Below are positions 9,275 to 45,497 of a stretch of 64,000 nucleotides of DNA, piece by piece; position 1 is the first letter of the stretch, and each line of letters starts with the position of its first letter. The translations under genes were made by a program, and so were the position numbers. Origin of the DNA: Amphiscolops sp. MND2022 (Eukaryota); the NCBI GenBank assembly GCA_964187785.1, contig OZ076409.1:15378001-15442000 (forward strand). Reading direction: 5' to 3'. A model generated the notes under the pieces. That model ran no database searches and had not been told where the DNA came from. It saw only the letters and a list, made by a program, of their open reading frames with translations.

Positions 9275-10510
9275 TGACTTCTTTCGAAAGTTTTTCTATT
9301 TGTTTTTGCAGTTTTTTGGCTCTTTTTATTTGTTTCTTCCTGTTTGAGGAGTTTGTACTGGATTCTTCTCCAATTTCACTTCTATTTCGTTTCGTGGTTC
9401 TTGTAGTTACTTTTGTCCAATCATTAGCAGCCTCGTCTGGTTCCATATTTGTCGTTATTGTGTCATTCGTAGCTTCGGTTTGCTCGTCTTCTTCAGTATC
9501 AGAGCTAGTTTCTGAGTCTGTATGGGTGCTGCTATTTTCATCCTCCACAATTCGTAGTTTCCCTTCCTCTCTTTCCATTTCTGCAGGGTGATCAGTCTCT
9601 GGTTTTTCGATAGGTTTTGGTTTTCGGTTGATTCTACACCAGTCTTCATGGTGTCCTCGGTAGCGTTGTCTCTTCTCTTCTTTGCATTTTTGGCATTCAT
9701 GCAGAGCAGGAATGCTAGCATAGATTGGAAGCTCACACCAGTAAGCAATGTCTGAGGAAGCTCGTGCCTTTGACCAGTTTTCCAATTGTTCTTGCTCTTC
9801 GTGGTTGTTAATTTTAACCGCAATTTTAGCTTTGCCTGTGTAGAACGTGCCGAGTTCAGTTCTCTGACGTTCCCGTTGAATTTCCCCTAGTTCTGCAAAG
9901 TCAGGGACTTGCAGTAGTTCCATTAACTGCTTGTCGTCACAGAGTGCTGGCAAGTTGTTTATTCTGACGTCATGTACTTTTGGGAAGGCAGATGTCCTGA
10001 CTATCCAGGTGTCTTCAGCTGTCGGAAAAACAGTTCGATTCATAATTTTGAGTCCATTTAGCTTAATGCGAGCAACGTCTTCTTCCGCTTCGATTGGGGC
10101 GATTACCAGTAGGACCTGTAGCTTCTTTTCTCCCAGTTTCATGTTAGTTCGTGAAATTGTAATCATTTCCCGGTAACGAGGATTGAACACGCTGAGGATG
10201 TCTTTATAAGCTATTGACATTGCCGTTTCGAGAGCAGCGCCATCGGTGAAAAGTTCCTTCGTTAGTGGAGGTATAATTTTCATTTTCAGCACTTGACGAC
10301 ATGTCTGAATTCGTAAGCAATGTTGGTAACAGCTTTACTGAAGTTCATTGTTTGCGCGGTTTTTTCGGTAATTTTAGTTTCGTCAGGCTGGCGGCTAGCG
10401 AGTTTTTCCTGAGGGTTTTCCGTTGAATTCTCGTTTTCGTTTACTATCGCACAATCAGGTAAAGAGTTTATGTAATCTTGTTGTTTCTGTCTGGCAGCTT
10501 TTTCCGACAT
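9243..10510 (-). pseudogene. ORF1 (RRM-like region + CxxC..H..C zinc knuckle), one frameshift near 10290; overlaps ORF2 start by 32 bp
   Basis: VRINNLP, FYTGKAKI, CQKC..GHHEDWC motifs; position upstream of ORF2; first ATG at 10510 (MSEKAARQ). Confidence 0.8.
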
Positions 10511-12968: not shown

Positions 12969-14084
12969 AAAAGCAAAGAGTCAATTTTTGGAGCGCGAGA
13001 CTCCTATCTGCGGTACGGACTTACCATTACCAGCCAACAACTTGTTTTGAGGAGAAATTCTCATGAAAAGACGACGTTTCAAGTTATTGACATCTGATGA
13101 AACAAAAATATTCCAGAAAAAGTGTGAGAAAGCAAAATTTTGACTCTATTACGAAAATGTATGCTGAAAAGCATAAATTAGTAAGCTTAAAAATGAAATT
13201 CCATGTAAGCAGTTGGATTTATTAACGGACCGTGCTAAACACGGGCGGGTTTGAAATTTTACAAAATTTTTGCCAAGTCCCGGATTCGACTGGGGAACTT
13301 CAGGGAAATGGAAGTCAGGGTACAAATGTGATGAAACTCATAATTGGCATGAGATACCCAAAAAAAACTACCGAAAATATGAACACACCCCCCCTCCCCC
13401 ACTCTACATGCTTAAAAATTGAAAAATTTCAAAATTTTCAAAAATACCCGGGAATGATGCGAAACGTGCAAAAATGTTGTTAAAAGCGTGGAATCATCAA
13501 AAATGAGGGGAGAAGGGCCCTGTGAACACTTCCTTAGGGCATATAAAATCTCAAAACACGAAAAAAACAGCTAGGTTCAACTTGAGTTTTTCAGCAATTT
13601 CGAGCAAGTTTTGACCGTGGAAAAGAATTAAATTAAGTTATTAGAAATAAACCCCGTGAACACTTCCTGAGGACATATAAAATCTCAAAAATGGAAAAAA
13701 ATCTGAAACACACTCGGATCAACCTGGAACTTTTTCACAATTCGGTACATGTTTCTGACCGTGAAAGACAACTAAAATCAAATTTTAAGAGATATTTTTT
13801 TTTCTGTAGACCTCATTTCACCGGCAGTCATTCATCCGAAATAAGAAACCCAAGTTCAATAGTGCCCATGACTTGTCAACTCATTTTATACCGCTGACTG
13901 AGTACCTATGAATCGATGCAAAGCCGGATTATGCAAAGTTTGATATGAAGCAATTTATGGTGTTTATTGCACATGACGAAGTCAATGTGCATCGCAGTCC
14001 AGCTAAGAAAGTTTTTTTTTGTAGCCAACACATAATAAGCCAGTAGCCAACTTCATAATAAGCCCCTTTTAGAGAAAAGCCAAA

Positions 14085-14155
14085 ACCCCAGAGAGATTCG
14101 AACCTGCAGCCTCCCGATTGCGCGGCATAAGTGTTAACCACTGTGCCATAAGGAC
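14085..14155 (-). other. tRNA-like / SINE-head segment (left arm)
   Basis: GTCCTTATGGCACAGTGG (box A) ... GGTTCGAATC (box B); degenerate stems. Confidence 0.6.
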
Positions 14156-14448
14156 GTTATTGAATAAAGTTGAACTGTTGAATATATACGCATGCTATTA
14201 AAATAATATATATACGCATATTAAAATAATCGTTGTCTTCGTCATGTGTTGCGAAGCACCGCTTCGCCTCTGTGTACATATCCATACTGAGCAAAGAAGG
14301 TAAATTTGTTGAAACTCTATAACCCTGAAAAGCTTGTCTTCGACCATGAATTTTATGTAAGTCATGTTTATGCAGTTGTTTATGAAATGGAAACAGACTT
14401 ATCGAACAAGGATAACTATAGTAATTGCTTCCAGTATTCATGAAAAAA

Positions 14449-14947
14449 TTGAATATCAGCCATATACGACCGTGTTCATCGAATTTTAGCTACTTTGGAC
14501 CTATAATATGGTCTTGTATATTGAAAGATAGATTCAATATCAGTCCTATACGACTGTGTTCATCGATTCTTAGCTACTTTAGACCTATAGTATAGTCCTG
14601 TAGATTGAAAGATAGGTTGAATATCATTCCTATACGACTGTGTTCATCGATTCTTAGCTACTTTAGACCTATAGTATAGTCCTGTAGATTGAAAGATAGG
14701 TTGAATATCAATCCTATACGACCGTGTTCATCGCTTCTTAACTACTTTAGACCTAGAGTATAGTCCTATATATTGAAAGATAGGTTGAATAACCGCCGTA
14801 TAGGACCGTGGTCATCGAATCTTAGCTACTTTAGACTTATAGTATGGTACTGTATATTGAAAGATGAATTGAATATCAGCCCTATACGACCGTGTTCGTT
14901 GAATCTTGGCTATATTAGACATAAAGTATGGTTCTGTATATTGAAAG
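14449..14947 (+). repeat. 84-bp minisatellite, 6 copies (left arm)
   Basis: TTGAATATCA-like unit start at 14449, 14533, 14617, 14701, 14785, 14869. Confidence 0.9.
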
Positions 14948-16938
14948 AGATGCATCAAAAGATAGACCGGTAACGATGCACCAAAAGTATCTTTTGAAGT
15001 GCCATATGCGATTCAAATGGTAAAACCCATCTTCGGGAAAAACGATTTTTCAAAGATCAAAACAATTAAAATCAAAAATTTCAAAGTGTGCTCCCTGAAA
15101 ATTTGCAAGCAAGTACGGGCTTCACCCCAGCATTTCTGGAAACGATGAATCAAGAAGCGTCTTTTAAAGCTCCATATACGTTCCAAATGCTGAAACCCGT
15201 CTCGGAAAATAACAATTTTGCAAGGTTCAAAAACTTTCTAAAACTTTTCCAAAACTTTCGAAGTGTTCTCTGACAATTTGGAAGCGTGTACGGGCTTCAT
15301 TCTAGCATTTATGGAAACGATGAATCAAATAGTATCTTTTGAAGCACCATGTTTCATCTACGTGAAAAAAGTCATCTCGGAAAAAAGATTTCAAAAGAAC
15401 AAGAAGCGTTTTCAAAAAACGTAAAAAATTCCAAAATGTGCTCAATGAGTGGTTGAGAGTTGATACGGGCTTTTACCCAGCTTTTCAGGAAACGATGGTT
15501 CAAGGAATGTCTATTGAAGCATCATATACAATCCACATGGCAAAACCCTAAACTTTCAAAGTGTGCTCCTTGAAAATTTGGAAGCTTGTACGGGCTTCAT
15601 TGTAGCATTTATGGAAACGATGAATCAAATAGTATCTTTTGAAGCACCAAATTTCATCTAAGTGAAAAAAGTCGTTTCGGAAAAAAGAGGTTTCAAAGGA
15701 ACAAAAAGCGTTTTCGAAAAACGTAAGAATTAAAAAATTCAAAGTGTGATCCCTGAGTAGTTGGGAGCTAATACGGGCTTTTACCCAGCTTTTACCCAGC
15801 AGGAAACGATGGATCAAGGAATGTCTTTTGAAGCATCATATACAATCCACATGGCAAAACCTCAACGCTCAGAGCTCACGGAAAGTAGATCATCTGTATT
15901 TCTCCTCTAGATTACTACATAGCAAGTATTTCCCAATATCTAGAGCTTTACATTATCACGCATTGTTCAATTTTAGAGCTGTACGTTTTCTGCCAATTAT
16001 CTCCCGGTTAATGCCGAGAATAACATGCCAATTAATGCCGAGTTTTGAATATTAAATTTTACTATTTTCAAAAGTCATGCAATCTCAACAACATGAGACT
16101 GACAACATTTGTCAGTTATAAAAGCAACTCTGAAGTGAGTCAGATTGAGTACGAAATAACTCCACTGAAAAGGCTGAGGCACGTTCAACAGCTGTGCTAA
16201 ACATTTACACATACTATGTCGGTACCGCTTTTGAGCTTATCCAGCGTCGCGTTCTACAGAGTCTTTTTGCCTAATTATTTTCAGATTGTTTGACTCACGT
16301 TAAAAACAAATGCCACTGGGGACACGCCTATTGAAGCCACTGTTTAATAATTAATCACAAGTACAAAGGGCTGACGTCGCTTTCATGTTTACACAGCGTG
16401 TCGTTCTGTTTGATCAATCTGGAGTTTGTAACTACGGAGATCTGTATGCCACTCTAGACACGCTCATTTAAGCTACTGTTTAATAAACAATCAATAAATA
16501 CAAAGAACTGGCGTGGCTTTCATGTTTACACAGCGTGTCGCTTTATTTATTCAATGTGAAATTGACAACTTCGGAGATCTATTGATCCAATATCAATCTT
16601 GCATTCGGTCTGCTCGACGAAAACAACAAAAAATCCATACTAAATTTGTTTACGATGAACTAGCAAATGGAAATGTTTTGAATTTTGAGGTCTCGATTCT
16701 GTTTCAAGCATTAGTATCTTGTTTCAAAACATTCATTAACTTTAGTGAATGAAAAAAACTAGGACGTCATTTCGGTGGTGTTAATATTTTGTGCCTGATG
16801 AACATTCTTTTGTCTGCAACAAGTTCTCTGTTGTGTCCAATGCCATTGAGCTTCGGTTTACTTCAAGTATCATGTTAATTTTTTTTTTCAGACGTTTGTC
16901 TTGAGATCACTGGTAGCAAAGCATAATCACCAGTCAAA

Positions 16939-17322
16939 ATGTATCAGAAATCAGCCATGACTTTCAGCTCTCTCACATCCTCAAAAGATCTCGAGTTTGG
17001 AGATGCCCATATTGACGTGGCATCCTCTGATAAACGACTTGTCCGCGTGACCCGAAACACCTATAAAAACAGTGGTCTTACATACATCAACATCAAGTTG
17101 TTCAAGAAAAAAGAGGACCAAGATGACTTTCGCTTGCAACAGAGAGTGGGTCTCACTGTCAAGGAGTTTCAGGAAATGATAGCGAATGTAGAAAACATTA
17201 GCATGGGCCCTCCCAAATCAGACGACAGTGCGGCGGAGAAGAAAATCAAAAAGAGGATTGCTCAAAGCTATACGGGGGCTGCTGACGTCAAGAAACAAAA
17301 AACTGCTGATAAGATGGAATGA
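16939..17322 (+). CDS. PC4-like (ssDNA-binding fold) protein, 127 aa
   Basis: KRLVRVTRNTYKNSGLTYINIKLFKK...RVGLTVKEFQEM resembles the PC4 beta-beta-beta/GISL-helix pattern. Intact in both arms; a splice acceptor (ttttttcag) lies upstream. Confidence 0.65.
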   Translation: MYQKSAMTFSSLTSSKDLEFGDAHIDVASSDKRLVRVTRNTYKNSGLTYINIKLFKKKEDQDDFRLQQRVGLTVKEFQEMIANVENISMGPPKSDDSAAEKKIKKRIAQSYTGAADVKKQKTADKME

Positions 17323-18267
17323 AAAGTTGAACAACTGATTTCAAAAGTAATTACAGCATACAAGTTTTGTTAATGTTCCTAGTTTTAATCTGATTTCATA
17401 TCCATGAAGTGTGATAAAATAGGTTTTTCGAATGTTTTTGATTCTATTTCATTTTTCTTTCATCGGTACATCCCATCTTCTCAATTGCTTTTTGTTTGAT
17501 GTGAACTGTGATGTGATGCTTTCGTTTTGTTTGCCCCTGATTTTGTCTTTTCTTCAATCTACCCTTACCATCATTAGTTATTTTATCATTTATTTCGTTG
17601 TTGTTTCCATTGCATACTCTCCTCTCCTCATTTACGCTCTATCCCATCTTATCCTATAACGTATCGATTTGAGTTTATTTTTGATGAAGTGTTGTTGTCC
17701 CCTTCCTGTGGTATCCGACCTTTAATGCAATACTTACCTCTCATACGTTTGAATTAATTACTTGATTTAACTTTTTAATGTGCTTCATTCTGTTCAATCC
17801 TGTCGTTGTTCCAAATCTGTACGTTAATGGAATATTCAATATTTAGCTAATCCGCACTGTTTCATTTGTTAGTGTGATGCTTCTGTTTAATCTTAAAGTC
17901 CAGTGAAGTAATATATATTTGATATGTACATTTTTTCAACTCGTAGGTTTTTGAATTAGTTTCATCATCCGACTTTTACTTGTTGTTGAGATAGTATTGG
18001 GTGTTGAAAACACTTCGTAAAAAACTACCCAAAAACTTTGTCACAGTTTTTTGTTTCATAGCAACTTTGACGAAAAACATCCATTTTTGAACGTTTTTGG
18101 GTAAAGGAATCTTTTCGGTGGCGTTTCTCAAGAATGTGCAAGCATCTTCAAACTCGAGTTGACTCATGCAACTGTAAAACCCGTGATCCAAGCATCTCTT
18201 TGTTCTTTTATAGTCAATGTGAAGTATTTGTATCAACTTTCCACTACAGTTTTTTTGTAGACAAAAC

Positions 18268-18681
18268 ATGGTGGAAGCAATGCATGAACAGCATCCGGAC
18301 TTTTTCAAACAACATCGGAAAAATTTTCGGTACCTGGTGTTAGAAAAGGAACCAAGGATTGGGCTTGACATTCCTGCAGGATCAAATTACGCATTTGGAG
18401 TTCATTCTTTTACCTCTGATTATCTTTGCGGCTTTGAGAAACAACGACACTACCATGTTCTTTTTGAGTGCGATTCCACTAACAGGAAAGGTTACAATGT
18501 ACCCTGCCTCTATTCAACTTTCTGTCTATTGTTGGCGGATTGTTCGAGTCTCGTCATGCAAGGGGAAATTATGAATCGTCTGCAGGTTGCAATGAAGTAC
18601 AACGTGAAAGAAAACAAAACCTTGCTAGCGCAGGGTCGACGCAAAGTTCCTGTTGTTCAAACGAAATGGATCATTGTGTAG
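18268..18681 (+). pseudogene. HxH-motif protein, truncated by a 433-bp deletion
   Basis: Matches 24460-25038 up to ...KVPVVQ, then joins downstream sequence at a TTCAAA microhomology. Confidence 0.6.
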
Positions 18682-19257
18682 TGGCATTTTAACGCTGTCA
18701 TTAATTCATCAGAATGTTGCGCATATCGTGACAGTGTGACGGAAGCTGTCAAATCTTGAAAAAGCAGGAGTATCAAGTTCGCGACACTCGGAAAGGAGAA
18801 CTGGAATTTCATGCATGTAATTTAGTTCTGTACATGTACTGTCTAGCCAATGAGTCAGGTCAGATATTGAGATATAGTACTCCAGGGTACAAGCGTGGTT
18901 TATTCAAGACTATACACTCAATGATTAAACTGCAACACATGCTTTGTTTGCCGTTGCAAAGTTAATTCTTCCTTTTCAACTCCGTCAAGCAACTCGTTCC
19001 AACCAGTTCTCTCAAGACTCAAAACGTCACGATAGAGCAACAATTTTGATAGAATGTGCCCACTCATACACATCAATTATATTTTGGTTGTTTCTATATC
19101 CAAAGGCTTTCAGTGTTAAGCAGAATTATTAACTCTCAAGCTCAGATATCAAACTAGAGTAGAAATAAGAAACGGTCAAAATGTATATTCGTTTTTGAGT
19201 TTTGATTTTTGGTGAACAATTGGGCACATTCTTCAACTTGTCAGCAATTGAGCTTCC

Positions 19258-19853
19258 GTGAAACTACCAATGCAGACTTTCACTGCTGTGTCTGGCAACT
19301 CGCGGTTCACATTTTATGAAACTTGGTTCAACAAAACAATAGCAATAATTGAAGAGGCATGGTGGGAGGACGTCTGGTCGATCAAAAGCTCAGTTTCAAT
19401 CCCAAAAGATTTGTTTATTCTGCTGCGAGCTCAATGTGTATCGGGGGGTACTAATCCAAACATCTTTAACCTAACGGACACTGTAGAAACGCCATTCACT
19501 ACAACAATAGTTTATGATCGTTTCGAGTTGCCGTATGGTGTACGACAACTCCTGTTTGACATTGACTGTCGAAATATACCCGTTTCAGAAAATCAGTTGG
19601 GTTGCATGACAGACTTGGAAAATTTAGAAAGTTACTGGGATATTAGAGGTACACCTCAATCACCACAAGAAGCTTCGTGTTCTCTGTCACCAAAGATTGC
19701 CGACACAAATCAAGAGCAAATTGCTTTTGACAGTCCAATCAAATCAAAACTAGCCCAGTAAAGGAATGCGCGCCAGCGCCAAAGAAGAATAGAGTTGAAA
19801 AATTCAAAAGGGCGGCATTGGAAATAGCTAAGCTTGATCTCGAAAACGTTTGA
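19258..19853 (+). pseudogene. Frameshifted copy of the 198-aa arm ORF
   Basis: Mirror of 23019-23615 with ATG changed to GTG and a frameshift near 19745. Confidence 0.6.
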
Positions 19854-20949
19854 CAAGCTTTCTTGAAGTGATATTTTATACCTTGTTTGTTTGTATCATC
19901 GTTCAAATCATTGCTTCAACTTTGTCATTCAAGTCATTTTGTAATTTACATTTCAGCCATTCTTTTCCCTAATGCCTAGCTTGATCACCTCACAAGAGTA
20001 AATTTGTGCGGCTTTGAGCGTTTGAATCGCTAAAGAAATTTGATATCGCAGCTTGTCTCAACAATCAGACGCCGAGTGAGAGAAAAATAGCTAAACCTTG
20101 ATGGTGAATTACCCTTTGCTTATGCTTACTCTTCTAGGCTCTAGGCAAAGCCAACTATTTTCAGAAAACGAAAAATGTTTTAAAAAATCTTTTGGAAACT
20201 TAACTTTACAATGTTCATTTGAAATCATCACTTCTCAGACTTTTGTCGTTGAATACAAAATCCAATACGAAGCACTGATTGTTTTTCAAAGAATTGATCG
20301 ATGGTCTCAGTAAAAATTAAATATTTCCTTGCTCGCTCGACGCGGTAACCAGATGGATTCCTTGTCAATTTTGATGATTGCCATGCACTCTCCAATACAA
20401 CTATTCGTCAATATGGGTGTGCGAAAAACCGCAGTCTAGTCCAACAGAATATCGCATAAACGTGTGTGTAGACCACCAGGCATTGTCTGAAGTAGAGCAG
20501 AACTTTTTAAAGCTAATAGTTAAGGTCCATGTTCATTCATGTTCTTTCAAACTTTTGGGAACGACAACCTACTTTCGTACTTTCTATGTGAAGCCAAACT
20601 ATTTTTGATACCCATTTTACTGTTTCACCGGCAAAACGAGGTGAAAATGGTTCTTGAAAAGACATTTCTCTGATGTTATCATTATAGTAACGTATCGGGT
20701 ACGACTGAATATGTAAGTCAAAGCTCTCAGGTTACCAAATTTAGGTTCAAGAAGTCTGAATCGGAAAAAACATAGAATACACCAATAGAAATTCTTTGCC
20801 TATTGAATCTAATCAGTCAACGGACTCATCCCTATAGTCTGTAGCAGCTCAGCTCATGAAAACTAGGTTGGAAATACAGTTTGATCATTAAATTAGTTTC
20901 AAGATTATAAAACAAGTCGAACGTAACAATTGTTCACAGAATAAATACT

Positions 20950-22137
20950 TCATTCTGCTGAAAAGGTAACTTCGATGAACAATGAATCCTCCTTCAGGTA
21001 TCCACGATCTTTGCTGCATCCATGTATCAAGCTTGAAAAAAAATATGATCCCACTTTTCTTCAAACTTACTCAAAACAAAATTTGTTTTAAATTGTCTCA
21101 CCTGTGTGGTAGGAAGTGCAGTATACCAACCGACAAGTTTCCTTTACACGAAGACGGACGCTTGAAGCAGCTCCCAGTTTTTTCAGTAGGGACTATTGAT
21201 CGCGTCCATCTATCAGCAGGATCATGTTGACTAATGACGCTGATTTTGATTGCAGACTTGAAAGGTCATTCAAGAATAGCATCATACATTCCGGGAATTA
21301 GGGCAACAAAAACAGAAACGTGATTGCCAGCTGCCACCTCACATCCAAATGGAAATAGTCTCACATACAAAGAATATCCGGGAGAACCTGTGAGAATTAT
21401 TGGACTACAAAAGTCTGTTGGCACTTTTCAATTTTTGATTTGAATTCTTCAGCACTTTTTCCCGCCTCGAAAATATGGTTGAAGCCACTGAGTTTCCAAA
21501 CAACTGACCCATTACGGCCACATTCCAGACTTTTTATACGCTCAAGCAAATGGCGAGAAAATTGTTCGAGTGGAACAATTTTTTTCGAGTGTCTTTCAAT
21601 CAATTCGTTTTGACGCTTTATGACATCTTCGTTTAGACTTTCTCTTTTCACAGGTTTAACCTCTGAGCTGCTTTCCTTGATATCTCCATTGCTTGCTGCG
21701 TTTTCCTTGACTTCGCCACTGCTTCTTGCTTCATTGAACAAATTAGACTGAAATTTATTTTCTTTTATCCCTTTCCTTTGACTCGAGACCTCCAGAGTTT
21801 CTGTAGAGCCAGAGGTATTTCTTGTTTCACAGACAGTGTTTCCGTTTTTCCTCTCAATCATCTCATTCCTCAGTTCGGATAGCTCTTCTTGCATTCGTGC
21901 TGTAATAGGTTTCATTGAATGGATGTACTGAAATACTTTTACATTGAGTAAGGGGAATTTTTTCGCTAGTGACCACAACTCATTTACTCGCAATTCAGAT
22001 ATTTGAGTTTTCAAGCAAAGAACCTCATCTCGCAATTTGTTGAAACTGGCAATTGGCTCTTCATTTTAATTGATACCCATGTGGTCCTCAGTGTTTCGCT
22101 GCTCTGGCAAGTTTAAAGTTGAAGCGTTGCTTTCCAT
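20950..22137 (-). pseudogene. TRAF-family (coiled-coil + MATH/TRAF-C) pseudogene with retained intron 21032-21101
   Basis: NGSVVWKL..., FCSPIILTGSPGYSLYVRLFPFG...HVSVFVALIPGMYDAILE*PFK..., CFKRP..GNLSVG, then a GT-AG intron and GYLKEDSLFIEV. TGA at the conserved Trp (21266-21268), a frameshift near 21420 and an early TAA near 22067. Confidence 0.9.
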
Positions 22138-23018
22138 AGAGAAACTCTGAAAAAAAGACTTTTAAACGTATGAAACATGGCTTGATGAGAATGCAAGCCT
22201 AGAAAGATGTCTTATCAAGAACCAATTTCACCTCGTTTTGCCGGTGAAACAGTAAAATGGGTATCAAAAATAGTTTGGCTTCACATAGAAAGTACGAAAG
22301 TAGGTTGTCGTTCCCAAAAGTTTGAAAGAACATGAATGAACATGGACCTTAACTATTAGCTTTAAAAAGTTCTGCTCTACTTCAGACAATGCCTGGTGGT
22401 CTACACACACGTTTATGCGATATTCTGTTGGACTAGACTGCGGTTTTTCGCACACCCATATTGACGAATAGTTGTATTAGAGAGTGCATGGCAATCATCA
22501 AAATTGACAAGGAATCCATCTGGTTACCGCGTCGAGCGAGCAAGGAAATATTTAATTTTTACTGAGACCATCGATCAATTCTTTGAAAAACAATCAGTGC
22601 TTCGTATTGGAGTTTGTATTCAACGACAAAAGTCTGAGAAGTGATGATTTCAAATGAACATTGTAAAGTTAAGTTTCCAAAAGATTTTTTAAAACATTTT
22701 TCGTTTTCTGAAAATAGTTGGCTTTGCCTAGAGCCTAGAAGAGTAAGCATAGGCAAAGGGTAATTCACCATCAAGGTTTAGCTATTTTTCTCTCACTCGG
22801 CGTCTGATTGTTGAGACAAGCTGCGATATCAAATTTCTTTAGCGATTCAAACGCTCAAAGCCGCACAAATTTACTCTTGTGAGGTGATCAAGCTAGGCAT
22901 TAGGGAAAAGAATGGCTGAAATGTAAATTACAAAATGACTTGAATGACAAAGTTGAAGCAATGATTTGAACGATGATACAAACAAACAAGGTATAAAATA
23001 TCACTTCAAGAAAGCTTG

Positions 23019-23615
23019 TCAAACGTCTTCGAGATCAAGCTTAGCTATTTCCAATGCCGCCCTTTTGAATTTTTCAACTCTATTCTTCTTTGGCGCTGGC
23101 GGGCATTCCTTTACTGGGCTAGTTTTTGATTTGATTGGACTGTCACAAGCAATTTGCTCTTGATTTGTGTCGGCAATCTTTGGTGACAGAGAACACGAAG
23201 CTTCTTGTGGTGATTGAGGTGTACCTCTAATATCCCAGTAACTTTCTAAATTTTCCAAGTCTGTCATGCAACCCAACTGATTTTCTGAAACGGGTATATT
23301 TCGACAGTCAATGTCAAACAGGAGTTGTCGTACACCATACGGCAACTCGAAACGATCATAAACTATTGTTGTAGTGAATGGCGTTTCTACAGTGTCCGTT
23401 AGGTTAAAGATGTTTGGATTAGTACCCCCCGATACACATTGAGCTCGCAGCAGAATAAACAAATCTTTTGGGATTGAAACTGAGCTTTTGATCGACCAGA
23501 CGTCCTCCCACCATGCCTCTTCAATTATTGTTATTGTTTTGTTGAACCAAGTTTCATAAAATGTGAACCGCGAGTTGCCAGACACAGCAGTGAAAGTCTG
23601 CATTGGTAGTTTCAT
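23019..23615 (-). CDS. Hypothetical protein, 198 aa, basic NLS-like C-terminus (PPAPKKNR)
   Basis: ATG-started long ORF in AT-rich DNA, co-oriented with the other arm genes. Confidence 0.55.
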   Translation of the reverse strand: MKLPMQTFTAVSGNSRFTFYETWFNKTITIIEEAWWEDVWSIKSSVSIPKDLFILLRAQCVSGGTNPNIFNLTDTVETPFTTTIVYDRFELPYGVRQLLFDIDCRNIPVSENQLGCMTDLENLESYWDIRGTPQSPQEASCSLSPKIADTNQEQIACDSPIKSKTSPVKECPPAPKKNRVEKFKRAALEIAKLDLEDV

Positions 23616-24459
23616 GGAAGCTCAATTGCTGACAAGTTGAAGAATGTGCCCAATTGTTCACCAAAAATCAAAACTCAAAAACGAACATACATTTTGACCG
23701 TTTCTTATTTCTACTCTAGTTTGATATCTGAGCTTGAGAGTTAATAATTCTGCTTAACACTAAAAGCCTTTGGATATAGAAACAACCAAAATATAATTGA
23801 TGTGTATGAGTGGGCACATTCTATCAAAATTGTTGCTCTATCGTGACGTTTTGAGTCTTGAGAGAACTGGTTGGAACGAGTTGCTTGACGGAGTTGAAAA
23901 GGAAGAATTAACTTTGCAACGGCAAACAAAGCATGTGTTGCAGTTTAATCATTGAGTGTATAGTCTTGAATAAACCACGCTTGTACCCTGAAGTACTATA
24001 TCTCAATATCTGACCTGACTCATTGGCTAGACAGTACATGTACAGAACTAAATTACATGCATGAAATTCCAGTTCTCCTTTCCGAGTGTCGCGAACTTGA
24101 TACTCCTGCTTTTTCAAGGTTTGACAGCTTCCGTCACACTGTCACGATATGCGCAACATTCTGATGAATTAATGACAGCGTTAAAATGCCACTACACAAT
24201 GATTCATTTCGTTTGAATCTAACGGCGCAATTTCATCATGTACACAAATTTTACTCCTAAGCGTGACCAGCGTTCAGATGAATTTTTGATAGTTCAAACA
24301 TGTCAGTACACAATGATCCAATTTATTTATACCTGACTGCTCAATTTTAATCCTTAATAAATAATTTTTGCTGTCGAGCACTGGCTGACGTTGACAAGGA
24401 AATACTGGTTTGAAGATTATATTCATGCCACATTTCATTCCTCATCAACTATGAAAGCT

Positions 24460-25038
24460 TTACAACGTTTTGGAATTGTCAATCGAAAAATACAAATTAG
24501 TAGTGTCGATGCTTCCGTATCCGTCATTGAGAATGTCTAAGATTCTGTACAAAGTTGCAGCCGATTGGCCTTGAATCAACTGCTGAAATCGGCTAAACGT
24601 GGCAGTCGGTAAGAAACCAGTTTGCACACTTTTGTCTCGTCTGATTTGAACAACAGGAACTTTGCGTCGACCCTGCGCTAGCAAGGTTTTGTTTTCTTTC
24701 ACGTTGTACTTCATTGCAACCTGCAGACGATTCATAATTTCCCCTTGCATGACGAGACTCGAACAATCCTCCAACAATAGACAGAAAGTTGAATAGAGGC
24801 AGGGTACATTGTAACCTTTCCTGTTAGTGGAATCGCACTCAAAAAGAACATGGTAGTGTGGTTGTTTCTCAAAGCCGCAAAGATAATCAGAGGTAAAAGA
24901 ATGAACTCCAAATGCGTAATTTGATCCTGCAGGAATGTCAAGCCCAATCCTTGGTTCCTTTTCTAACACCAGGTACCGAAAATTTTTCCGATGTTGTTTG
25001 AAAAAGTCCGGATGCTGTTCATGCATTGCTTCCACCAT
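24460..25038 (-). CDS. Hypothetical protein, 192 aa, with HUH-like motif PHYHVLF
   Basis: Intact ORF; His-hydrophobic-His followed by three hydrophobic residues; several downstream Tyr. Confidence 0.55.
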   Translation of the reverse strand: MVEAMHEQHPDFFKQHRKNFRYLVLEKEPRIGLDIPAGSNYAFGVHSFTSDYLCGFEKQPHYHVLFECDSTNRKGYNVPCLYSTFCLLLEDCSSLVMQGEIMNRLQVAMKYNVKENKTLLAQGRRKVPVVQIRRDKSVQTGFLPTATFSRFQQLIQGQSAATLYRILDILNDGYGSIDTTNLYFSIDNSKTL

Positions 25039-25981
25039 GTTTTGTCTCCAAAAAAACTGTAGTGGAAAGTTGATACAAATACTTCACATTGACTATAAAA
25101 GAACAAAGAGATGCTTGGATCACGGGTTTTACAGTTGCATGAGTCAACTCGAGTTTGAAGATGCTTGCACATTCTTGAGAAACGCCACCGAAAAGATTCC
25201 TTTACCCAAAAACGTTCAAAAATGGATGTTTTTCGTCAAAGTTGCTATGAAACAAAAAGCTGTGACAAAGTTTTTGGGTAGTTTTTCACGAAGTGTTTTC
25301 AACACCCAATACTATCTCAACAACAAGTAAAAGTCGGATGATGAAACTAATTCAAAAACCTACGAGTTGAAAAAATGTACATATCGAATATATATATTAC
25401 TTCACTGGACTTTAAGATTAAACAGAATCATCACACTAACAAATGAAACAGTGCGGATTAGCTAAATATTGAATATTCCATTAACGTACAGATTTGGAAC
25501 AACGACAGGATTGAATAGAATGAAGCATATTAAAAAGGTAAATCAAGTAATTAATTCAAAGTATGAGAGGTAAGTATTGCATAAAAGGTCGGATACCACA
25601 GGAAGGGGACAACAACACTTCATCAAAAATAAACTCAAATCGATACGTTATAGTATATGGGATAGAGCGTAAATGAGGAGAGGAGAGTATGCAATGGAAA
25701 CAACAACGAAATAAATGATAAAATAACTAATGATAGAAAGGGTAGATTGAAGAAAAGACAAAATCAGGGGCAAACAAAACGAAAGCATCACATCACAGTT
25801 CACATCAAGCAAAAAGCAATTGAGAAGATGGGATGTACCGATGAAAGAAAAATGAAATGAATTCAAAAACATTCGAAAAACCTATTTTATCACACTTCAT
25901 GGATATGAAATCAGATTAAAACTAGGAACCTTAACAAAACTTGTATGCTGTTATTACTTTTGAAATCAGTTGTTCAACTTT

Positions 25982-26365
25982 TCATTCCATCTTATCAGCA
26001 GTTTTTTGTTTCTTGACGTCAGCAGCCCCCGTATAGCTTTGAGCAATCCTCTTTTTGATTTTCTTCTCCGCCGCACTGTCGTCTGATTTGGGAGGGCCCA
26101 TGCTAATGTTTTCTACATTCGCTATCATTTCCTGAAACTCATTGACAGTGAGACCCACTCTCTGTTGCAAGCGAAAGTCATCTTGGTCCTCTTTTTTCTT
26201 GAACAACTTGATGTTGATGTACGTAAGACCACTGTTTTTATAGGTGTTTGTGGTCACGCGGACAAGTCGTTTATCAGATGATGCCACGTCAATATGGGCA
26301 TCTCCAAACTCGAGATCTTTTGAGGATGTGAGAGAGCTGAAAGTCATGGCTGATTTCTGATACAT
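25982..26365 (-). CDS. PC4-like protein, 127 aa (right-arm copy)
   Basis: 2 aa differences from 16939-17322. Confidence 0.65.
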   Translation of the reverse strand: MYQKSAMTFSSLTSSKDLEFGDAHIDVASSDKRLVRVTTNTYKNSGLTYINIKLFKKKEDQDDFRLQQRVGLTVNEFQEMIANVENISMGPPKSDDSAAEKKIKKRIAQSYTGAADVKKQKTADKME

Positions 26366-28656
26366 TTTGACTGGTGATTATGCTTTGCTACCAATGATCT
26401 CAAGACAAACGTCTGAAAAAAATTTAACATGATACTTGAAGTAAACCGAAGCTCAATGGCATTGGACACAACAGAGAACTTGTTGCAGACAAAAGAATGT
26501 TCATCAGGCACAAAATATTAACACCACCGAAATGACGTCCTAGTTTTTTTCATTCACTAAAGTTAATGAATGTTTTGAAACAAGATACTAATGCTTGAAA
26601 CAGAATCGAGACCTCAAAATTCAAAACATTTCCATTCGCTAGTTCATCGTAAACAAATTTAGTATGGATTTTTTGTTGTTTTGATCGAGCAGACCGAATG
26701 CAAGATTGATATTGGATCAATAGATCTCCGAAGTTGTCAATTTCACATTGAATAAATAAAGCGACACGCAGTGTAAACATGAAAGCCACGCCAGTTCTTT
26801 GTATTTATTGATTGTTTATTAAACAGTAGCTTAAATGAGCGTGTCTAGAGTGGCATACAGATCTCCGTAGTTACAAACTCCAGATTGATCAAACAGAACG
26901 ACACGCTGTGTAAACATGAAAGCGACGTCAGCCCTTTGTACTCGTGATTAATTATTAAACAGTGGCTTCAATAGGCGTGTCCCCAGTGGCATTTTTTTTA
27001 ACGTGAGTCAAACAATCTGAAAATAATTAGGCAAAAAGACTCTGTAGAACGCGACGCTGGATAAGCTCAAAAGCGGTACCGACATAGTATGTGTAAATGT
27101 TTAGCACAGCTGTTGAACGTGCCTCAGCCTTTTCAGTGGAGTTATTTCGTACTCAATCTGACTCACTTCAGAGTTGCTTTTATAACTGACAAATGTTGTC
27201 AGTCTCATGTTGTTGAGATTGCATGACTTTTGAAAATAGTAAAATTTAATATTCAAAACTCGGCATTATTTGGCATGTTATTCTCGGCATTAACCGGGAG
27301 ATAATTGGCAGAAAACGTACAGCTTTAAAATTGAACAATGCGTGATAATGTAAAGCTCTAGATATTGGGAAATACTTGCTATGTAGTAATCTAGAGGAGA
27401 AATACAGATGATCTACTTTCCGTGAGCTCTGACCGTTGAGGTTTTGCCATGTGGATTGTATATGATGCTTCAAAAGACATTCCTTGATCCATCGTTTCCT
27501 GCTGGGTAAAAGCTGGGTAAAAGCCCGTATTAGCTCCCAACTACTCAGGGATCAGACTTTGAATTTTTTTAATCTTACGTTTTTCGAAAACGCTTTTTGT
27601 TCCTTTGAAACCTCTTTTTTCCGAAATGACTTTTTTCACTTAGATGAAATTTGGTGCCTCAAAAGATACTATTTGATTCATCGTTTCCATAAATGCTAGA
27701 ATGAAGCCCGTACAAGCTTCCAAATTTTCAAGGAGCACACTTTGAAAGTTTAGGGTTTTGCCATGTGGATTGTATATGATGCTTCTTCAATAGACATTCC
27801 TTGAACCATCGTTTCCTGAAAAGCTGGGTAAAAGCCCGTATCAACTCTCAACCACTCATTGAGCACATTTTGGAATTTTTTACGTTTTTTGAAAACGCTT
27901 CTTGTTCTTTTGAAATCTTTTTTCCGAGATGACTTTTTTCACGTAGATGAAACATGGTGCTTCAAAAGATACTATTTGATTCATCGTTTCCATAAATGCT
28001 AGAATGAAGCCCGTACACGCTTCCAAATTGTCAGGGAACACACTTTGAAAGTTTAGGGTTTTGCCATGTGGATTGTATATGATGCTTCAATAGACATTCC
28101 TTGAACCATCGTTTCCTGAAAAGCTGGGTAAAAGCCCGTATCAACTCTCAACCACTCATTGAGCACATTTTGGAATTTTTTACGTTTTTTGAAAACGCTT
28201 CTTGTTCTTTTGAAATCTTTTTTCCGAGATGACTTTTTTCACGTAGATGAAACATGGTGCTTCAAAAGATACTATTTGATTCATCGTTTCCATAAATGCT
28301 AGAATGAAGCACGTACACGCTTCCAAATTGTCAGGGAACACTTCGAAAGTTTTGGAAAAGTTTTAGAAAGTTTTTGAACCTTGCAAAATTGTTTTTTTCC
28401 GAGACGGGTTTCAGCATTTGGAACGTATATGGAGCTTTAAAAGACGCTTCTTGATTCATCGTTTCCAGAAATGCTGGGGTGAAGCCCGTACTTGCTTCCA
28501 AATTTTCAGGGAGCACACTTTGAAATTTTTGATTTTAATTGTTTTGATCTTTGAAAAATCGTTTTTCCCGAAGATGGGTTTTACCATTTGAATCGCATAT
28601 GGCACTTCAAAAGATACTTTTGGTGCATCGTTACCGGTCTATCTTTTGATGCATCT

Positions 28657-29155
28657 CTCTCAATATACAGAACCATACTTTATGTCTAATATAGCCAAGA
28701 TTCAACGAAATCGGTCGTATAGGGCTGATAATCAATTCATCTTTCAATATACAGTACCATACTATAAGTCTAAAGTAGCTAAGATTCGATGACCACGGTC
28801 GTATACGGCGGTTATTCAACCTATCTTTCAATATATAGGACTATACTCTAGGTCTAAAGTAGTTAAGAAGCGATGAACACGGTCGTATAGGATTGATATT
28901 CAACCTATCTTTCAATCTACAGGACTATACTATAGGTCTAAAGTAGCTAAGAATCGATGAACACAGTCGTATAGGAATGATATTCAACCTATCTTTCAAT
29001 CTACAGGACTATACTATAGGTCTAAAGTAGCTAAGAATTGATGAACACAGTCGTATAGGACTGATATTCAATCTATCTTTCAATATACACGACCATATTA
29101 TAGGTCCAAAGTAGCTAAAATTCGATGAACACGGTCGTATATGGCTGATATTCAA
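28657..29155 (-). repeat. 84-bp minisatellite (right arm)
   Basis: Mirror of 14449-14947. Confidence 0.9.
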
Positions 29156-29448
29156 TTTTTTCATGAACACTGGAAGCAATTACTATAGTTATCCTTGTTC
29201 GATAAGTCTGTTTCCATTTCATAAACAACTGCATAAACATGACTTACATAATATTCATGGTCGAAGACAAGCTTTTCAGGGTTATAGAGTTTCAACAAAT
29301 TTACCTTCTTTGCTCAGTATGTATATGTACACAGAGGCGAAGCGGTGCTTCGCAACACATGACGAAGACAACGATTATTTTAATATGCGTATATATATTA
29401 TTTTAATAGCATGCGTATATATTCAACAGTTCAACTTCATTCAATAAC

Positions 29449-29519
29449 GTCCTTATGGCACAGTGGTTAACACTTATGCCGCCCAATCGGGAGGCTGCAG
29501 GTTCGAATCTCTCTGGGGT
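29449..29519 (+). other. tRNA-like / SINE-head segment (right arm)
   Basis: Mirror of 14085-14155. Confidence 0.6.
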
Positions 29520-30636
29520 TTTGGCTTTTCTCTAAAAGGGGCTTATTATGAAGTTGGCTACTGTGGAAAAAAAAACTTTCTTAGCTGGACTGCAATGCAC
29601 ATTGACTTCGTCATGTGCAATAAACACCATAAATTGCTTCATATCAAACTTTGCATAATCCGGCTTTGCATCGATTCATAGTTACTCAGTCAGCGGCATA
29701 AAATGAGTTGACAAGTCATGGGCACTCTTGAATTTGGGTTTCTTATTTCGGATGAATGACTGCCGGTGAAATGAGGTCTACAGAAAAAAACATATCTCTT
29801 AAAATTTGATTTTAGTTGTCTTTCACGGTCAGAAACATGTACCGAATTGTGAAAAAGTTCCAAGTTGATCCGAATGTGTTTCAGATTTTTTTCCATTTTT
29901 GAGATTTTACATGTCCTCAGGAAGTAGTGTTCACGGGGTTTATTTCTAATAACTTAATTTAATTCTTTTCCACGGTCAAAACTTGCTCGAAACTGCTGAA
30001 AAACTCAAGTTGAACCTAGCTGTTTTTTTTTCGTGTTTTGAGATTTTATATGCCCTAAGGAAGTGTTCACAGGGCCCTTCTCCCCTCATTTTTGATGATT
30101 CCACGCTTTTAACAACATTTTTGCACGTTTCGCATCATTCCCGGGTATTTTTGAAAATTTTCAAATTTTTCAATTTTCAAGCATGTAGAGTGGGGGGAGG
30201 GGGGGTGTGTTCATATTTTCGGTAGTTTTTTTGGGTATCTCATGCCAATTATGAGTTTCATCACATTTGTACCCTGACTTCCATTTCCCTGAAGTTCCCC
30301 AGTCGAATCCGGGACTTCAATCAAAAGTCGACTCAGGAGTTTGAAAAACACGTTTTAGGGGTAATTTTGGTCCCTCTTTCCAATGCCGTTGTCCGTTTTT
30401 TGCTATCTGTTCATTTTGACCCCTTTTGCAAAACTGTCACCGAAGTTAAACCACATTTTGTGAAAATAGTAAAAATGACATAACTCAATGAAAATTCAAG
30501 TGATGGCGGCGAAAATTTCAGCATGGGGGTTTTTTTGGACGCTCTTTCCAATGCCGTTGACCGTTTTTTGCTATCTGTTCATTTTGACCCCTTTTGCAAA
30601 ACTGTCACCGAAGTTAAACCACATTTCTGACAAAAA

Positions 30637-31886: not shown

Positions 31887-33867
31887 TTTAAAGAATTTAT
31901 TGAAAACTGAGAATTAACAAGTAAAAAGTAATGAAGTCTAAGGTATATGTATAAAATGAGTATATGAGTAACTGAAGTGTTGAAAAAGCTGAAGTATGTA
32001 GATGAAGATGCTTGGTTATGGCATTTTTGAGAAAGCGCCAAAATGGGAATGTTTTTTTTTGGTATGAAGTTAGTATAATGTAGTTTGGAGAATGTATGAA
32101 AAAAAGATGTTTGCTCCTGGAAGGAGTTTGTTCTCAAAACCCGTTTTTTGCATACAGGTTGCCAACAACTAGTGCTCGAAAAGAATTGGGAATTGGGTTG
32201 ATTGATGATGGTATTGTAGAGATTTAGAACTTTAAAATTCCAGTCAAAAAGGTCCGAAATTTTTCAGTTTAGTTTTTGTTTTCATTGTATAAGTTTTCAA
32301 CTGCAGTGAAAACTTGTACAATTTTATTCTCCAGATTAATAGTGTAAATTTGGTGGTTTGTAGCATCATAGAATGGATCAAACTTCCGGATCAATGAGTA
32401 AAATTCAAAATGAGAAGTTAAAATAGTGTTAGAGTCAGAATGTTTCCAGTTTGATTCAGATAAAAGATCTTTGAGTTTTTCTTTCTTCAGTGGTTGTACG
32501 AGTGAAAAGGTCCTTTGAATTTTCTTTTCCTTGTCTAGTGTATTGATGTAGCCAGAAGTTTGTTGGGTTTTGATCACATGTTCTTTTATAGGAGGTATTT
32601 CGTTGAAAATAGTTTCGGGTGCCAGTATTTTGTTTTGTTTCTTTTCCAAAAAGAATGGGTATTCATGATATCCATGCTTTGCCGTTGACTGTTGGTCATC
32701 TGCTTGATTTCGGGCAAGGTCTGTTGAGGATTCCCATTCAGTTGAGCGATGCATTAGTTTAGGTTTTTGCATAGGAATGGTATCTTTCTTTGAGTTGTTA
32801 ATGCATGGTTGTTCAGTTTCTGCCACGTTGTTATTGCATTCGGTTTCAGTACCATCATCGGTCTGCTTTGGCGCCTTTGAGATTGGTTCAGCATCATCTG
32901 AATCTGACAGTTCAGGTTCATTAGACATTGGCTCTGTTTCTGCAGTTTCCATAACGTAGTCAGTTGTTAACTTCTGGTTCTGAGATTCACTGTTTTTCTG
33001 TATTTGCTGTTCGTCTGATAGTTGTTTTGGGCATCTTGATTGTTGATGAGCACTGGGAAGGTTCTCATTGACGCATAAAGAGCATTCGAGGAGTGGGATA
33101 CAGCAACATTTGAAAAAAATGCCACTGGAACTAAACATTTTGTCATATGCATTATTGGCCCAGTTTTGTAGTAAACTTTCCTCATTCTCATTGTCAATTA
33201 AAACTGTAATTCTTGCCTCTCCTGTATAAAAAAGGCTGCTATCAGGAAGTCGTCGTTGTTGATGAAAAATTTTGCTACTAAATTTGAAGTTTTGAAGACC
33301 ACAGCTACTCAAAATATCCTCATCCGTCAGAAAGTGTGGTAGGTTTCGGAAAGATATTGGTAATCTTTTTGGATAGACATTGTTGTTCGGGTTGGAATAA
33401 TTGACAGAATAAGGCCGTATTTTCCGATTGCGAAGAGTAATGCCATCGTGAATAAGAGAGGAAGCTGCATTTTCAAGTTTGTAAGGAATGATCACAGTAA
33501 TACACTTCAAATTGCCTTTGTTGCGTAAAATTGTAGTTTTGAAGATGGTAATTTCATTGGAGTTAAGTCGGTTTTTGACGGCCATAACAGCTTCCACAAA
33601 CATTGAATCCAGTAATTTGCTGTTTTTGAACATTTCAGATGTCAGTGGTAAGGCAAAGTTGATAATAATTGGTAATTTGTCCATATTTGAGTTCGATTTC
33701 GACAAGGAAATAACTGCATTTTTGTAACAATTTTGCTCAACATTTTCATTATGATGTTGATCAAGCTCACTCGTGTTCAAATTAGTCATTACTTTTGCAA
33801 CTTTTGCTGCAAAATTTGCAAGATGGCGCTGTGCAAACAAAGTTTGCAGGCTGACAGAGTAACGCCG
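31887..33867 (-). mobile_element. ORF1-only non-LTR element A, copy 1
   Basis: 18-bp TSD TATCACAACAATTAGGCT at 31869-31886 and 33868-33885; 3' end AATAAATTCTTTAAA; single ORF. Confidence 0.9.
32269..33789 (-). CDS. ORF1-like protein A1 (506 aa from first ATG): RRM-like/zinc knuckle, acidic linker, unassigned C-terminal domain
   Basis: ISFRNLPHFL, FYTGEARI, IPLLECSLC..H....C align by eye with the L1/Tx1 ORF1 at 9243-10292. Confidence 0.85.
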   Translation of the reverse strand: MTNLNTSELDQHHNENVEQNCYKNAVISLSKSNSNMDKLPIIINFALPLTSEMFKNSKLLDSMFVEAVMAVKNRLNSNEITIFKTTILRNKGNLKCITVIIPYKLENAASSLIHDGITLRNRKIRPYSVNYSNPNNNVYPKRLPISFRNLPHFLTDEDILSSCGLQNFKFSSKIFHQQRRLPDSSLFYTGEARITVLIDNENEESLLQNWANNAYDKMFSSSGIFFKCCCIPLLECSLCVNENLPSAHQQSRCPKQLSDEQQIQKNSESQNQKLTTDYVMETAETEPMSNEPELSDSDDAEPISKAPKQTDDGTETECNNNVAETEQPCINNSKKDTIPMQKPKLMHRSTEWESSTDLARNQADDQQSTAKHGYHEYPFFLEKKQNKILAPETIFNEIPPIKEHVIKTQQTSGYINTLDKEKKIQRTFSLVQPLKKEKLKDLLSESNWKHSDSNTILTSHFEFYSLIRKFDPFYDATNHQIYTINLENKIVQVFTAVENLYNENKN

Positions 33868-34442
33868 TATCACAACAATTAGGCTAAAAGCAAAGAGTCA
33901 ATTTTTGGAGCGCGAGACTCCTATCTGCGGTACGGACTTGCCATTACCAGCCAACAACTTGTTTTGAGGAGAAATTCTCTTGAAAAGACGACGTTTCAAG
34001 TTATTGACATCTGATGAAACAAAAATATTCCAGAAAAATTGTGAGAAAGCAAAATTTTGACTCTATTACGAAAATGTCTGCTGAAAAGCATAAATTAGTA
34101 AGCTTAAAAATGAAATTCCATGTATTATCAAAAGTCGACTCAGGAGTGTGAAAACACGTTTTAGGGGTAAGTTTGGGCCCTCTTTCCAATGCCGTTGTCC
34201 GTTTTTTGCTATCTGTTCATTTTGACCCCTTTTGCAAAACTGTCACCGAAGTTAAACCACATTTTGTGAAAATAGTAAAAATGACATAACTCAATGAAAA
34301 TTCAAGTGATGGCGGCGAAAATTTCAGCATGGGGGTTTTTTTGGACGCTCTTTCCAATGCCGTTGTCCGTTTTTTGCTATCTGTTCATTTTGACCCCTTT
34401 TGCGAAACTGTCACCGAAGTTAAACCACATTTCTGACAAAAA

Positions 34443-34561
34443 AGGCTACAACACCTGGTGTTCCCAAGCGGTCTCCCATCCAAGTACTAACCAGGCCCTA
34501 TGTTGTTTAAATTCGGTGATCGGACGAGAACCGGTGCATTCAACATGGTATGGTCGTAGCC
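34443..34561 (-). rRNA. 5S rRNA (1 substitution in box A region)
   Basis: 119-nt match; tttaaattcgg variant. Confidence 0.95.
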
Positions 34562-34653
34562 GATCATTGTAAAATCAATAGCTTTATATGCTTAACAACA
34601 AAATTACGTACAATGATACGAAAATTTTCTCGGTCAAAATACGCGTAACTTTT

Positions 34654-45479: not shown

Positions 45480-45497
45480 TATCACAACAATTAGGCT

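Follow-up and report, generated by a model that had tools for sequence, protein, structure and literature searches.

What is a 17-kb palindrome, with the same small genes in both of its arms, doing inside a host repeat of Amphiscolops sp. MND2022? We examined this question in a stretch of 64,000 nucleotides (assembly GCA_964187785.1, contig OZ076409.1, positions 15,378,001 to 15,442,000 of the forward strand), hereafter the window, to which all coordinates refer unless another locus is named. With a probability that we put at about 0.5, the element at 13208..30319 is a helper-dependent satellite of Polintons that is built like a copy-back defective genome and has a damaged right end. It is best filed as a Polinton-derived element and not as a member of an autonomous Polinton family. 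The evidence comes from the layout of the element, the genes that accompany two of its open reading frames (ORFs) in related loci, and the recurrence of paired copies across diverged subfamilies.

An integrated palindrome with gene-bearing arms

The element has the following main parts.

13208..30319: whole element, 17,112 bp, within one unit of a 904-bp host repeat
13208..13274, plus strand: unpaired left terminus, 67 bases without a partner in the right arm, beginning AGCAGT
13275..20671, plus strand: left arm, 7,397 bp
20647..20671: inner arm boundary, 25 bp paired with 22201-22225, with 4 mismatches
20672..22200: unique centre, 1,529 bp, with no long match elsewhere in the window
22201..30317, minus strand: right arm, 8,117 bp, the inverted copy of the left arm
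30290..30319, minus strand: right terminus, with the outer 67 bases missing and the last 2 bases (30318-30319) belonging to neither arm nor host

Global alignment of the arms gave 98.8% identity over 7,374 aligned bases (7,283 matches, 91 substitutions, and 14 indels), which bears out the near-identical inverted arms of 7.4 and 8.1 kb described in an earlier reading of this DNA (the original prediction). The substitutions comprised 44 transitions and 47 transversions. The left arm has a 433-bp deletion near 18655, at a 6-bp microhomology, when compared to the right arm, and the right arm has one additional whole 303-bp repeat unit when compared to the left. Because the arms differ by substitutions, a deletion, and a repeat unit, an origin of the palindrome as a duplicated-read artefact is disfavoured. 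All 10 of the uninterrupted host-repeat units in the window have the empty-site form CATGTA-TT-ATCAAAAG; the insertion is therefore without a target-site duplication (TSD) and lacks the TT of its target, as had been proposed. Each arm carries three inward-pointing ORFs, with ORF1 and ORF2 spaced by ~950 bp.

16939..17322, plus strand: ORF1, left copy, 127 aa, whole
18268..18681, plus strand: ORF2, left copy, 137 aa, cut by the 433-bp deletion
19258..19761, plus strand: ORF3, left copy, with an altered start codon and frameshifted near 19745
23019..23615, minus strand: ORF3, right copy, 198 aa, whole
24460..25038, minus strand: ORF2, right copy, 192 aa, with a predicted HUH-like fold at residues 15-110 and a small C-terminal domain
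25982..26365, minus strand: ORF1, right copy, whole

The claim of three inward ORFs per arm thus holds in full for the right arm only; the broken left-arm ORFs, the 67-base unpaired left end, and a broken TRAF gene in the centre are additions to the original prediction. An antisense 131-aa ORF and an outward 94-aa ORF gave no significant match in Pfam. Inspection by eye of the listed long stop-free frames inside the element revealed no polymerase, integrase, helicase, or transposase, in agreement with the earlier statement on polymerase, helicase, and transposase, and tblastn with the proteins of a related locus (L001, described below) found no match to a Polinton-type protease or capsid in the window. 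With no pPolB or retroviral-type integrase gene in 13208-30319, the element cannot be an autonomous Polinton/Maverick member, and the non-autonomous status suggested previously fits the window's copy.

Related loci join ORF1 and ORF2 to Polinton-like genes

A metagenome scan recovered three related loci (L001, L002, and L003), and ORF1 lies directly before ORF2 in all of them. The two genes abut or overlap in L001 (590-2732) and L003 (424-1837), compared to their separation in the window. The order in L001 is ORF1, ORF2, and then, on the opposite strand, a protease and a partial ORF of 232 aa. The protease matched Pfam Peptidase_C5 with an E value of 0.0011, under the cut-off, and is adenain-like; a similar protease piece was recognized by eye after ORF1-ORF2 in L003, and L002 ends too early to show this region. 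An adenain-like protease thus faces the gene pair in two of the three loci and a capsid-like ORF in one. Homologues of the 232-aa ORF number 86 and measure 407-569 aa; one is labelled 'F54H12.2-like [Convolutriloba macropyga]' with 64% identity, and 14 tblastn-confirmed relatives are in IMG/VR. From this label and a similarity to PY, the family would be the Polinton major capsid protein, an assignment that no library confirmed, and a literature search on F54H12 did not confirm that the label means a Polinton capsid. Capsid and adenovirus-like protease genes form a conserved Polinton module (PMC4028283). We infer that the related loci are Polintons, and the adenain-like protease and capsid-like gene that lie opposite ORF1-ORF2 there point to a Polinton origin of the element.

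Two further ORF2 clusters (P0147 and P0160) share contigs of 12,705, 91,144, and 120,296 bp with capsid-family proteins, as matched by equal contig size, which serves as a proxy for identity. In a quick tree of 66 ORF2 rows, members linked to capsid or protease genes were distributed over three clades, and the window's lineage formed one nested clade of 11 (SH-aLRT 99). Because the linked members span three clades and the window lineage is nested, the tree suggests that linkage to protease and capsid genes is the older state. Scans of IMG/VR with ORF1, ORF2, ORF3, protease, and capsid queries yielded no loci, and nothing was found in prokaryote genomes.

Paired copies occur in several subfamilies

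The recurrence of the doubled layout was assessed from family members found on one contig, with contigs of 5 kb to 5 Mb told apart by their printed size as a proxy for identity and with the orientation of pairs not given. The ORF3 sample covered five window-lineage clusters (64 of 104 members listed), and the capsid control covered four clusters (59 of 112 listed). At least two ORF3 members were present on 9 of 54 contigs, across the five clusters, versus 0 of 55 in the capsid controls and 0 of 11 in the sister cluster P0144; Fisher's test of ORF3 versus capsid pairing gave p 0.0012, or 0.0027 after subtraction of one doubtful pair. Paired ORF2 copies were found on 3/12 contigs of cluster P0004, 1/1 of P0012, and 0/47 of five outside clusters. 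Ten within-cluster ORF3 pairs could be aligned. Five of these had identities of 98-99.5%, compared to a median of 92-96% with other members, and one more also exceeded the median. Eleven further cross-cluster pairs, with at least 50% identity, overlap in homologous positions.

Two short contigs held pairs of whole copies, one of 8,956 bp with two of ORF2 (185/189) and one of 13,085 bp with two of ORF3 (195/197). Given the geometry of the window's copy, the room left for a centre is at most ~3.3 kb on the former and ~10 kb on the latter; with arms arranged as in the window, these contigs have none or too little room for a Polinton core. The paired-copy pattern spans subfamilies whose proteins are 56-74% identical, and the palindromic layout likely recurs across a whole family.

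Properties of the predicted proteins

ORF2 has 49 close relatives and a wider family of 362 clusters at 50% identity (E up to 0.001), and none of the family members inspected carried a name. Searches with ORF1-3 produced no significant match in Pfam, NCBIfam, PHROGs, or PDB sequences, and an atlas search with ORF2 gave nothing notable (best 0.80). We aligned 82 mostly near-full-length rows, consisting of the query, 14 close relatives, two proteins from L001/L002, and 65 of 150 listed cluster proteins. Five residues (H46, C54, H61, H63, and C80) were near-invariant, being present in 78-80 of 81-82 rows. The H-U-H residues H61 (78/81) and H63 (79/81) fall at strand 62-67 of the model and line up with the HYHV of RepB, and H46 was retained in 78/82 rows; alignment and model together provide an H-U-H motif on a strand and a third metal ligand. 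A profile alignment of ORF2 with five RepB-family proteins was colinear through motif I and HYHV.

The AlphaFold model of ORF2 (pLDDT 90) had HUH Rep domains as its best matches in all four fold searches (Z 4.0-4.8, root-mean-square deviation (rmsd) 3.2-4.1, 73-84 residues aligned; Foldseek E 0.004-0.05), and pMV158 RepB was matched with a Foldseek E of 0.008. The named viral matches were CRESS, microvirus, and parvovirus Reps, with E from 0.004, among rows that were mostly unnamed. In a wide search of 48,161 chains, 14 of the top 15 were HUH Rep or Rep-derived origin-binding domains (Z 3.1-4.6); the best had Z 4.6 and rmsd 3.3 over 73 aligned residues, and a second look gave Z up to 4.8. Because Z values under 8 may reflect merely a common arrangement, the HUH assignment is consistent but weak. 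The earlier HUH call for the 192-aa protein thus receives consistent but weak backing from the fold matches.

No catalytic tyrosine is invariant in the ORF2 family. The best candidate, Y111, was found in 55/81 rows and in representatives of all five ORF2 clusters with at least 20 members, and the window's ORF2 itself has Y82 and Y111. Among the 71 rows with all five His/Cys residues intact, 19 were without Y111 and 6 were without Tyr at either candidate place. The range ends of the structural matches, as opposed to coordinates, suggest that helix 81-89 of the model would be the catalytic helix, and its position 85 is Phe in 60/82 rows and Tyr in 19/82. Because the His/Cys residues are near-invariant while no tyrosine is obligatory, ORF2 would more likely bind ends or repeats, through a predicted metal-bound HUH fold, than cut them.

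ORF1 is likely a PC4-like, single-stranded DNA (ssDNA)-binding protein as judged from its sequence: its three best atlas clusters carry PC4 (PF02229) at 0.85-0.86, which we treat as a lead only. The earlier PC4-like call for this 127-aa protein is consistent with those clusters, whereas Pfam itself gave no match, so that its support is weak. ORF3 has 35 relatives, and its model (pLDDT 64) includes an N-terminal domain of four strands plus a helix, for which PUR/PC4 and RWD folds ranked equally as best matches (Z 4.5, rmsd 3.7, 63 residues aligned). A profile comparison of ORF1 and ORF3 detected no similarity. The C-terminal motif [ST]P-x8-12-CPPAPKK (window 23019-23130, minus strand), usually preceded by Cys, was present in 11/11 members checked and presumably resembles plant SIAMESE-type cyclin-dependent kinase inhibitor motifs; ORF3 may be a cell-cycle effector acting on the host. 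It seems to be specific to a sub-lineage because it is missing from the interval between ORF2 and the protease in L001/L003.

Two readings of the termini

The AGCAGT at the left end is a 5/6 match to the Maverick end motif 5'-(AGT)2, for which the chance at a given place is ~0.6% by base composition, or ~3% once both ends and several motifs are taken into account. Intact vertebrate Mavericks have 5'-(AGT)2 or (AG)3 ends, 6-bp TSDs, terminal inverted repeats (TIRs) of 46-1,447 bp, and a mean size of 16,862 +/- 1,678 bp (PMC8097293), which the 17,112 bp of the element fits. A Maverick-like reading of the ends requires a damaged right end to explain the missing TSD. The two added bases at that end pair with an upstream TG and extend a 30-nt hairpin, and they could have been added when a broken end was repaired by fold-back.

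Read on the minus strand, the same ends have a 5' T, a repeat that starts 2 nt in, a 5' hairpin, a subterminal 3' repeat followed by a hairpin, and T|T flanks. The left-terminus hairpin (13230-13244) is CCGTG-5-CACGG, and the terminal hairpins were not stronger than those of shuffled sequences (z -1.1 to -1.4; left about -1.4). Because this is a single copy, the ends alone cannot decide between the Maverick and the Helitron2 reading. The right flank (30297-30317, flank 30320-30345) ends on the minus strand in TGAT, which equals the 'TNAT|T' target of two fungal Helitron2 groups (PMC5148889) and is probably a coincidence. A 16-nt end pattern had 4 matches in IMG/VR that shared nothing beyond the pattern and were judged to be chance.

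Centre, repeats, and surrounding DNA

At the inner arm boundary, 4 mismatches in 25 bp are more than expected from the arm-wide rate (P ~2e-4), and this stretch is likely a fold-back or conversion boundary. The centre matched Pfam TRAF-mep_MATH with an E value of 4.9e-8 (above the cut-off), and TRAFs were the best matches among PDB sequences. The 84-bp and ~300-bp tandem repeats that had been reported were recovered in both arms. The features of the centre and the repeats are listed here.

20953..22065, minus strand: broken TRAF-like gene, coiled-coil-like region and MATH domain split into four pieces, interrupted by stops and a frameshift
14448..14948: 84-bp tandem repeat, six copies, mirrored at 28656-29155
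15249..15861: ~300-bp repeat, 2 units, mirrored at 27440-28355 with 3 units; older degenerate units from 14969
16310..16580: 137-bp doublet upstream of ORF1, mirrored at 26722-26992

Both arms also hold a tRNA-like stretch, GGTTCGAATC, at 14070-14145 and in the mirror near 29450-29525. It was not called by ARAGORN or Rfam and is perhaps a short interspersed element remnant or an RNA polymerase III promoter carried by the element.

In the surrounding DNA, a 446-bp satellite occupies 1-3606 in 8 copies, and a long interspersed element (LINE)-like sequence at 6030-10334 (minus strand) shows, by eye, an ORF1-like frame followed by endonuclease-like and reverse-transcriptase-like frames in several pieces. 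Tandem arrays with periods of 2,903 bp and 1,998 bp fill 32272-49505 (minus strand), and each unit has an open frame of 542-555 codons that by eye resembles LINE ORF1 without ORF2. At 53600-63400, related repeats are interleaved with ~165-bp units holding the tRNA-like motif GTTCGATTCCC.

Discussion

A copy-back-like satellite would arise when the ssDNA intermediate of Polinton replication folds back at a short imperfect inverted repeat, here the 25-bp inner boundary; a racket-like single-stranded Polinton intermediate has been put forward (PMC4196379). The end module would then be copied onto itself, which would give the product two origins and a size suited to a Polinton capsid, and intact Polintons would provide the polymerase, integrase, and capsid in trans. 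Fold-back during replication would keep the arms alike while the subfamilies diverge to the observed protein identities. ORF1 would coat ssDNA, ORF2 would bind ends or repeats, and ORF3 would act on the host cell cycle. The right end would have been damaged at or after integration, with loss of ~67 bases, the TSD, and the TT, and fold-back repair would have added the two bases. The minimal rolling-circle replicon preferred in the original prediction is weakened by the lack of an invariant tyrosine, the protease/capsid linkage, and a left end and size that fit Mavericks. Its alternative, a decayed Polinton or virus-like element, is better supported in regard to a Polinton-derived origin and less so in regard to decay, as the doubled layout resembles a maintained family trait.

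Several observations weigh against a Polinton satellite. The element has no 6-bp TSD and its ends are not symmetric, two features that are defining for Polintons, and the ends fit Helitron2 as well. No cluster contributed more than 15 members to the recurrence sample, the sampled contigs are partly non-independent, and the capsid control could stem from different hosts. The window's own ORF2 cluster had pairs on 0/15 contigs, and four of the ten alignable ORF3 pairs within clusters fell short of the median identity with other members. The capsid-like family is without a match in Pfam, NCBIfam, PHROGs, or PDB sequences, linkage of the ORF1-ORF2 family to a polymerase or integrase gene was not observed, and no window-lineage contig size equalled any of 140 sampled capsid-contig sizes, a small sample. 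Lastly, Y111 aligns with the motif-III tyrosine of RepB in a weak profile comparison that scored 22.3 versus 6.9-14.3 for 20 shuffles, at a probability of 4%.

This last point also favours the most serious competitor, which we consider unlikely: an HUH-mobilised rolling-circle element with Helitron2-type asymmetric ends, an inverted repeat grown to 7.4 kb, and genes acquired from a Polinton. Its own HUH-fold protein, or else a Helitron2 RepHel supplied in trans, would nick such an element and paste it as ssDNA. The 5' T, the repeat 2 nt in, the hairpins, the T|T flanks, and the lack of a TSD match the definitions of that group (PMC3627910, PMC5148889), ORF2 matches HUH Reps in the four fold searches, and Y111 is present in representatives of the five large clusters. 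Yet the 3' repeat lies 67 nt from the end versus 20-51 nt in the same reports, two target bases are lost, the hairpins are no better than shuffles, and the left end matches the Maverick motif; fold-back repair would account equally well for the two added bases. The intact-His/Cys rows without Y111 (19/71) or without Tyr at either place (6/71), and the Phe in 60/82 rows at the position on helix 81-89 that the model suggests to be the catalytic one, also speak against an active nuclease. A related proposal, which we regard as rather improbable, would make the element a self-mobilising giant palindrome derived from a Polinton end and representing a new class of mobile elements of animals, in which its own HUH protein (three His, two Cys, and no obligatory Tyr) and two ssDNA-binding proteins would nick a snap-back strand and paste it via asymmetric Helitron2-like ends, with a swappable loop cargo (TRAF).

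The linkage of the gene pair to protease and capsid-like genes could instead reflect an autonomous lineage of Polintons whose giant terminal repeats (7-8 kb) carry genes, the window's copy having lost its core and gained the TRAF fragment. The ORFs remain open across the 56-74% identical subfamilies, which suggests selection in a replicating lineage. We nevertheless find this decidedly improbable: the 8,956- and 13,085-bp paired contigs leave at most ~3.3 kb and ~10 kb for the centre, published TIRs measure 46-1,500 bp, a core flanked by two 7.5-kb arms would be much larger than Polintons, which measure 13-25 kb (PMC8097293, 10.1101/2023.08.22.554363), and the small sample of 140 capsid-contig sizes matched no window-lineage contig. 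A one-off local event, by in-place inverted duplication of a decayed Polinton end or by two adjoining one-armed insertions, would agree with the one copy at the DNA level and with the single copy per cluster on most listed contigs (45/54 for ORF3; 15/15 for the window's ORF2 cluster). It is very unlikely, however, in view of the outer ends, which meet the same host site within 2 bp, the lack of host DNA between the arms, the same-contig pairs in five ORF3 and two ORF2 clusters, and the 11 cross-cluster pairs in homologous positions. An assembly artefact from a fold-back chimeric read is hardly credible, given the 91 substitutions, the 433-bp deletion at a 6-bp microhomology, and the whole 303-bp unit that separate the arms and the host repeat that continues in register on either side.

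Among known systems, the element shares with Polintons/Mavericks (adintoviruses) a size of ~17 kb, a left end one base off 5'-(AGT)2, inverted ends, and, through its relatives, the protease/capsid-like linkage. It differs in having no PolB, integrase, ATPase, protease, or capsid genes, no 6-bp TSD, and asymmetric ends; its gene-bearing arms of 7-8 kb are five times the published TIR maximum (46-1,500 bp; PMC8097293, 10.1101/2023.08.22.554363). Non-autonomous Helitron2/Helentron elements likewise have a 5' T, an asymmetric inverted repeat, end hairpins, T|T flanks, no TSD, internal tandem repeats, and a captured gene fragment, whereas the element has a repeat of 7.4 kb versus 8-16 bp, a 3' offset of 67 nt, a loss of 2 target bases, and Polinton-like gene links; no long ORF in the element corresponds to a RepHel transposase. 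Replitrons resemble it in that they encode a small HUH-fold protein with an additional small C-terminal domain but no helicase, show a weak likeness to CRESS/pMV158 Reps, and have no TSD; their protein, however, has a conserved tyrosine within GYxxK and is mostly of the HUQ type, and their terminal repeats are short and direct (PMC10288648). ORF2, in contrast, has no GYxxK in its conserved columns, no invariant Tyr, and two conserved Cys, and it is located in giant inverted arms. Mriyaviruses and HUH-bearing clusters of Polinton-like viruses also place an HUH gene in a double-jelly-roll virus context, but their HUHs keep the catalytic motifs and occur in protist viruses with helicases (PMC11253617; 10.64898/2026.06.19.733378), whereas the ORF2 family is without an invariant Tyr and is found on animal-type contigs. 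A search of the full-text literature, with supplements, Repbase, and most subscription papers outside its scope, found no description of a PC4-like and HUH-fold gene pair or of palindromic Polinton satellites.

In copy-back defective genomes of linear DNA viruses, such as the adenovirus delta-Ad.IR inverted-repeat deletion genomes and the snap-back genomes of adeno-associated virus, a second, inverted copy of one end lies across a short centre, and a helper is required. The element is like them in its inverted end duplication and in its short unique centre, at whose borders a short inverted repeat is found; it is unlike them in being integrated in the host and apparently kept as a family, with ORFs open across diverged subfamilies.

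If the satellite reading is correct, animal Polintons have natural copy-back-like satellites whose capsid-sized, mirror-image genomes persist as a family. This would provide indirect evidence that animal Polintons replicate via an ssDNA fold-back intermediate, as has been proposed, and that they are packaged; both points are still mostly inferred. Such elements would escape detection pipelines that rely on the presence of core genes and of short TIRs; a coral survey, for example, limited TIRs to 2,500 bp and demanded a 15-kb loop (10.1101/2023.10.06.561300). The analysis also brings to light a family of 362 clusters of small HUH-fold proteins without library annotation, paired with PC4-like genes near Polinton-like structural genes. 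In ORF2, a Rep domain may have been turned from a nuclease into a DNA-binding protein, as in the origin-binding domains of polyomaviruses and papillomaviruses.

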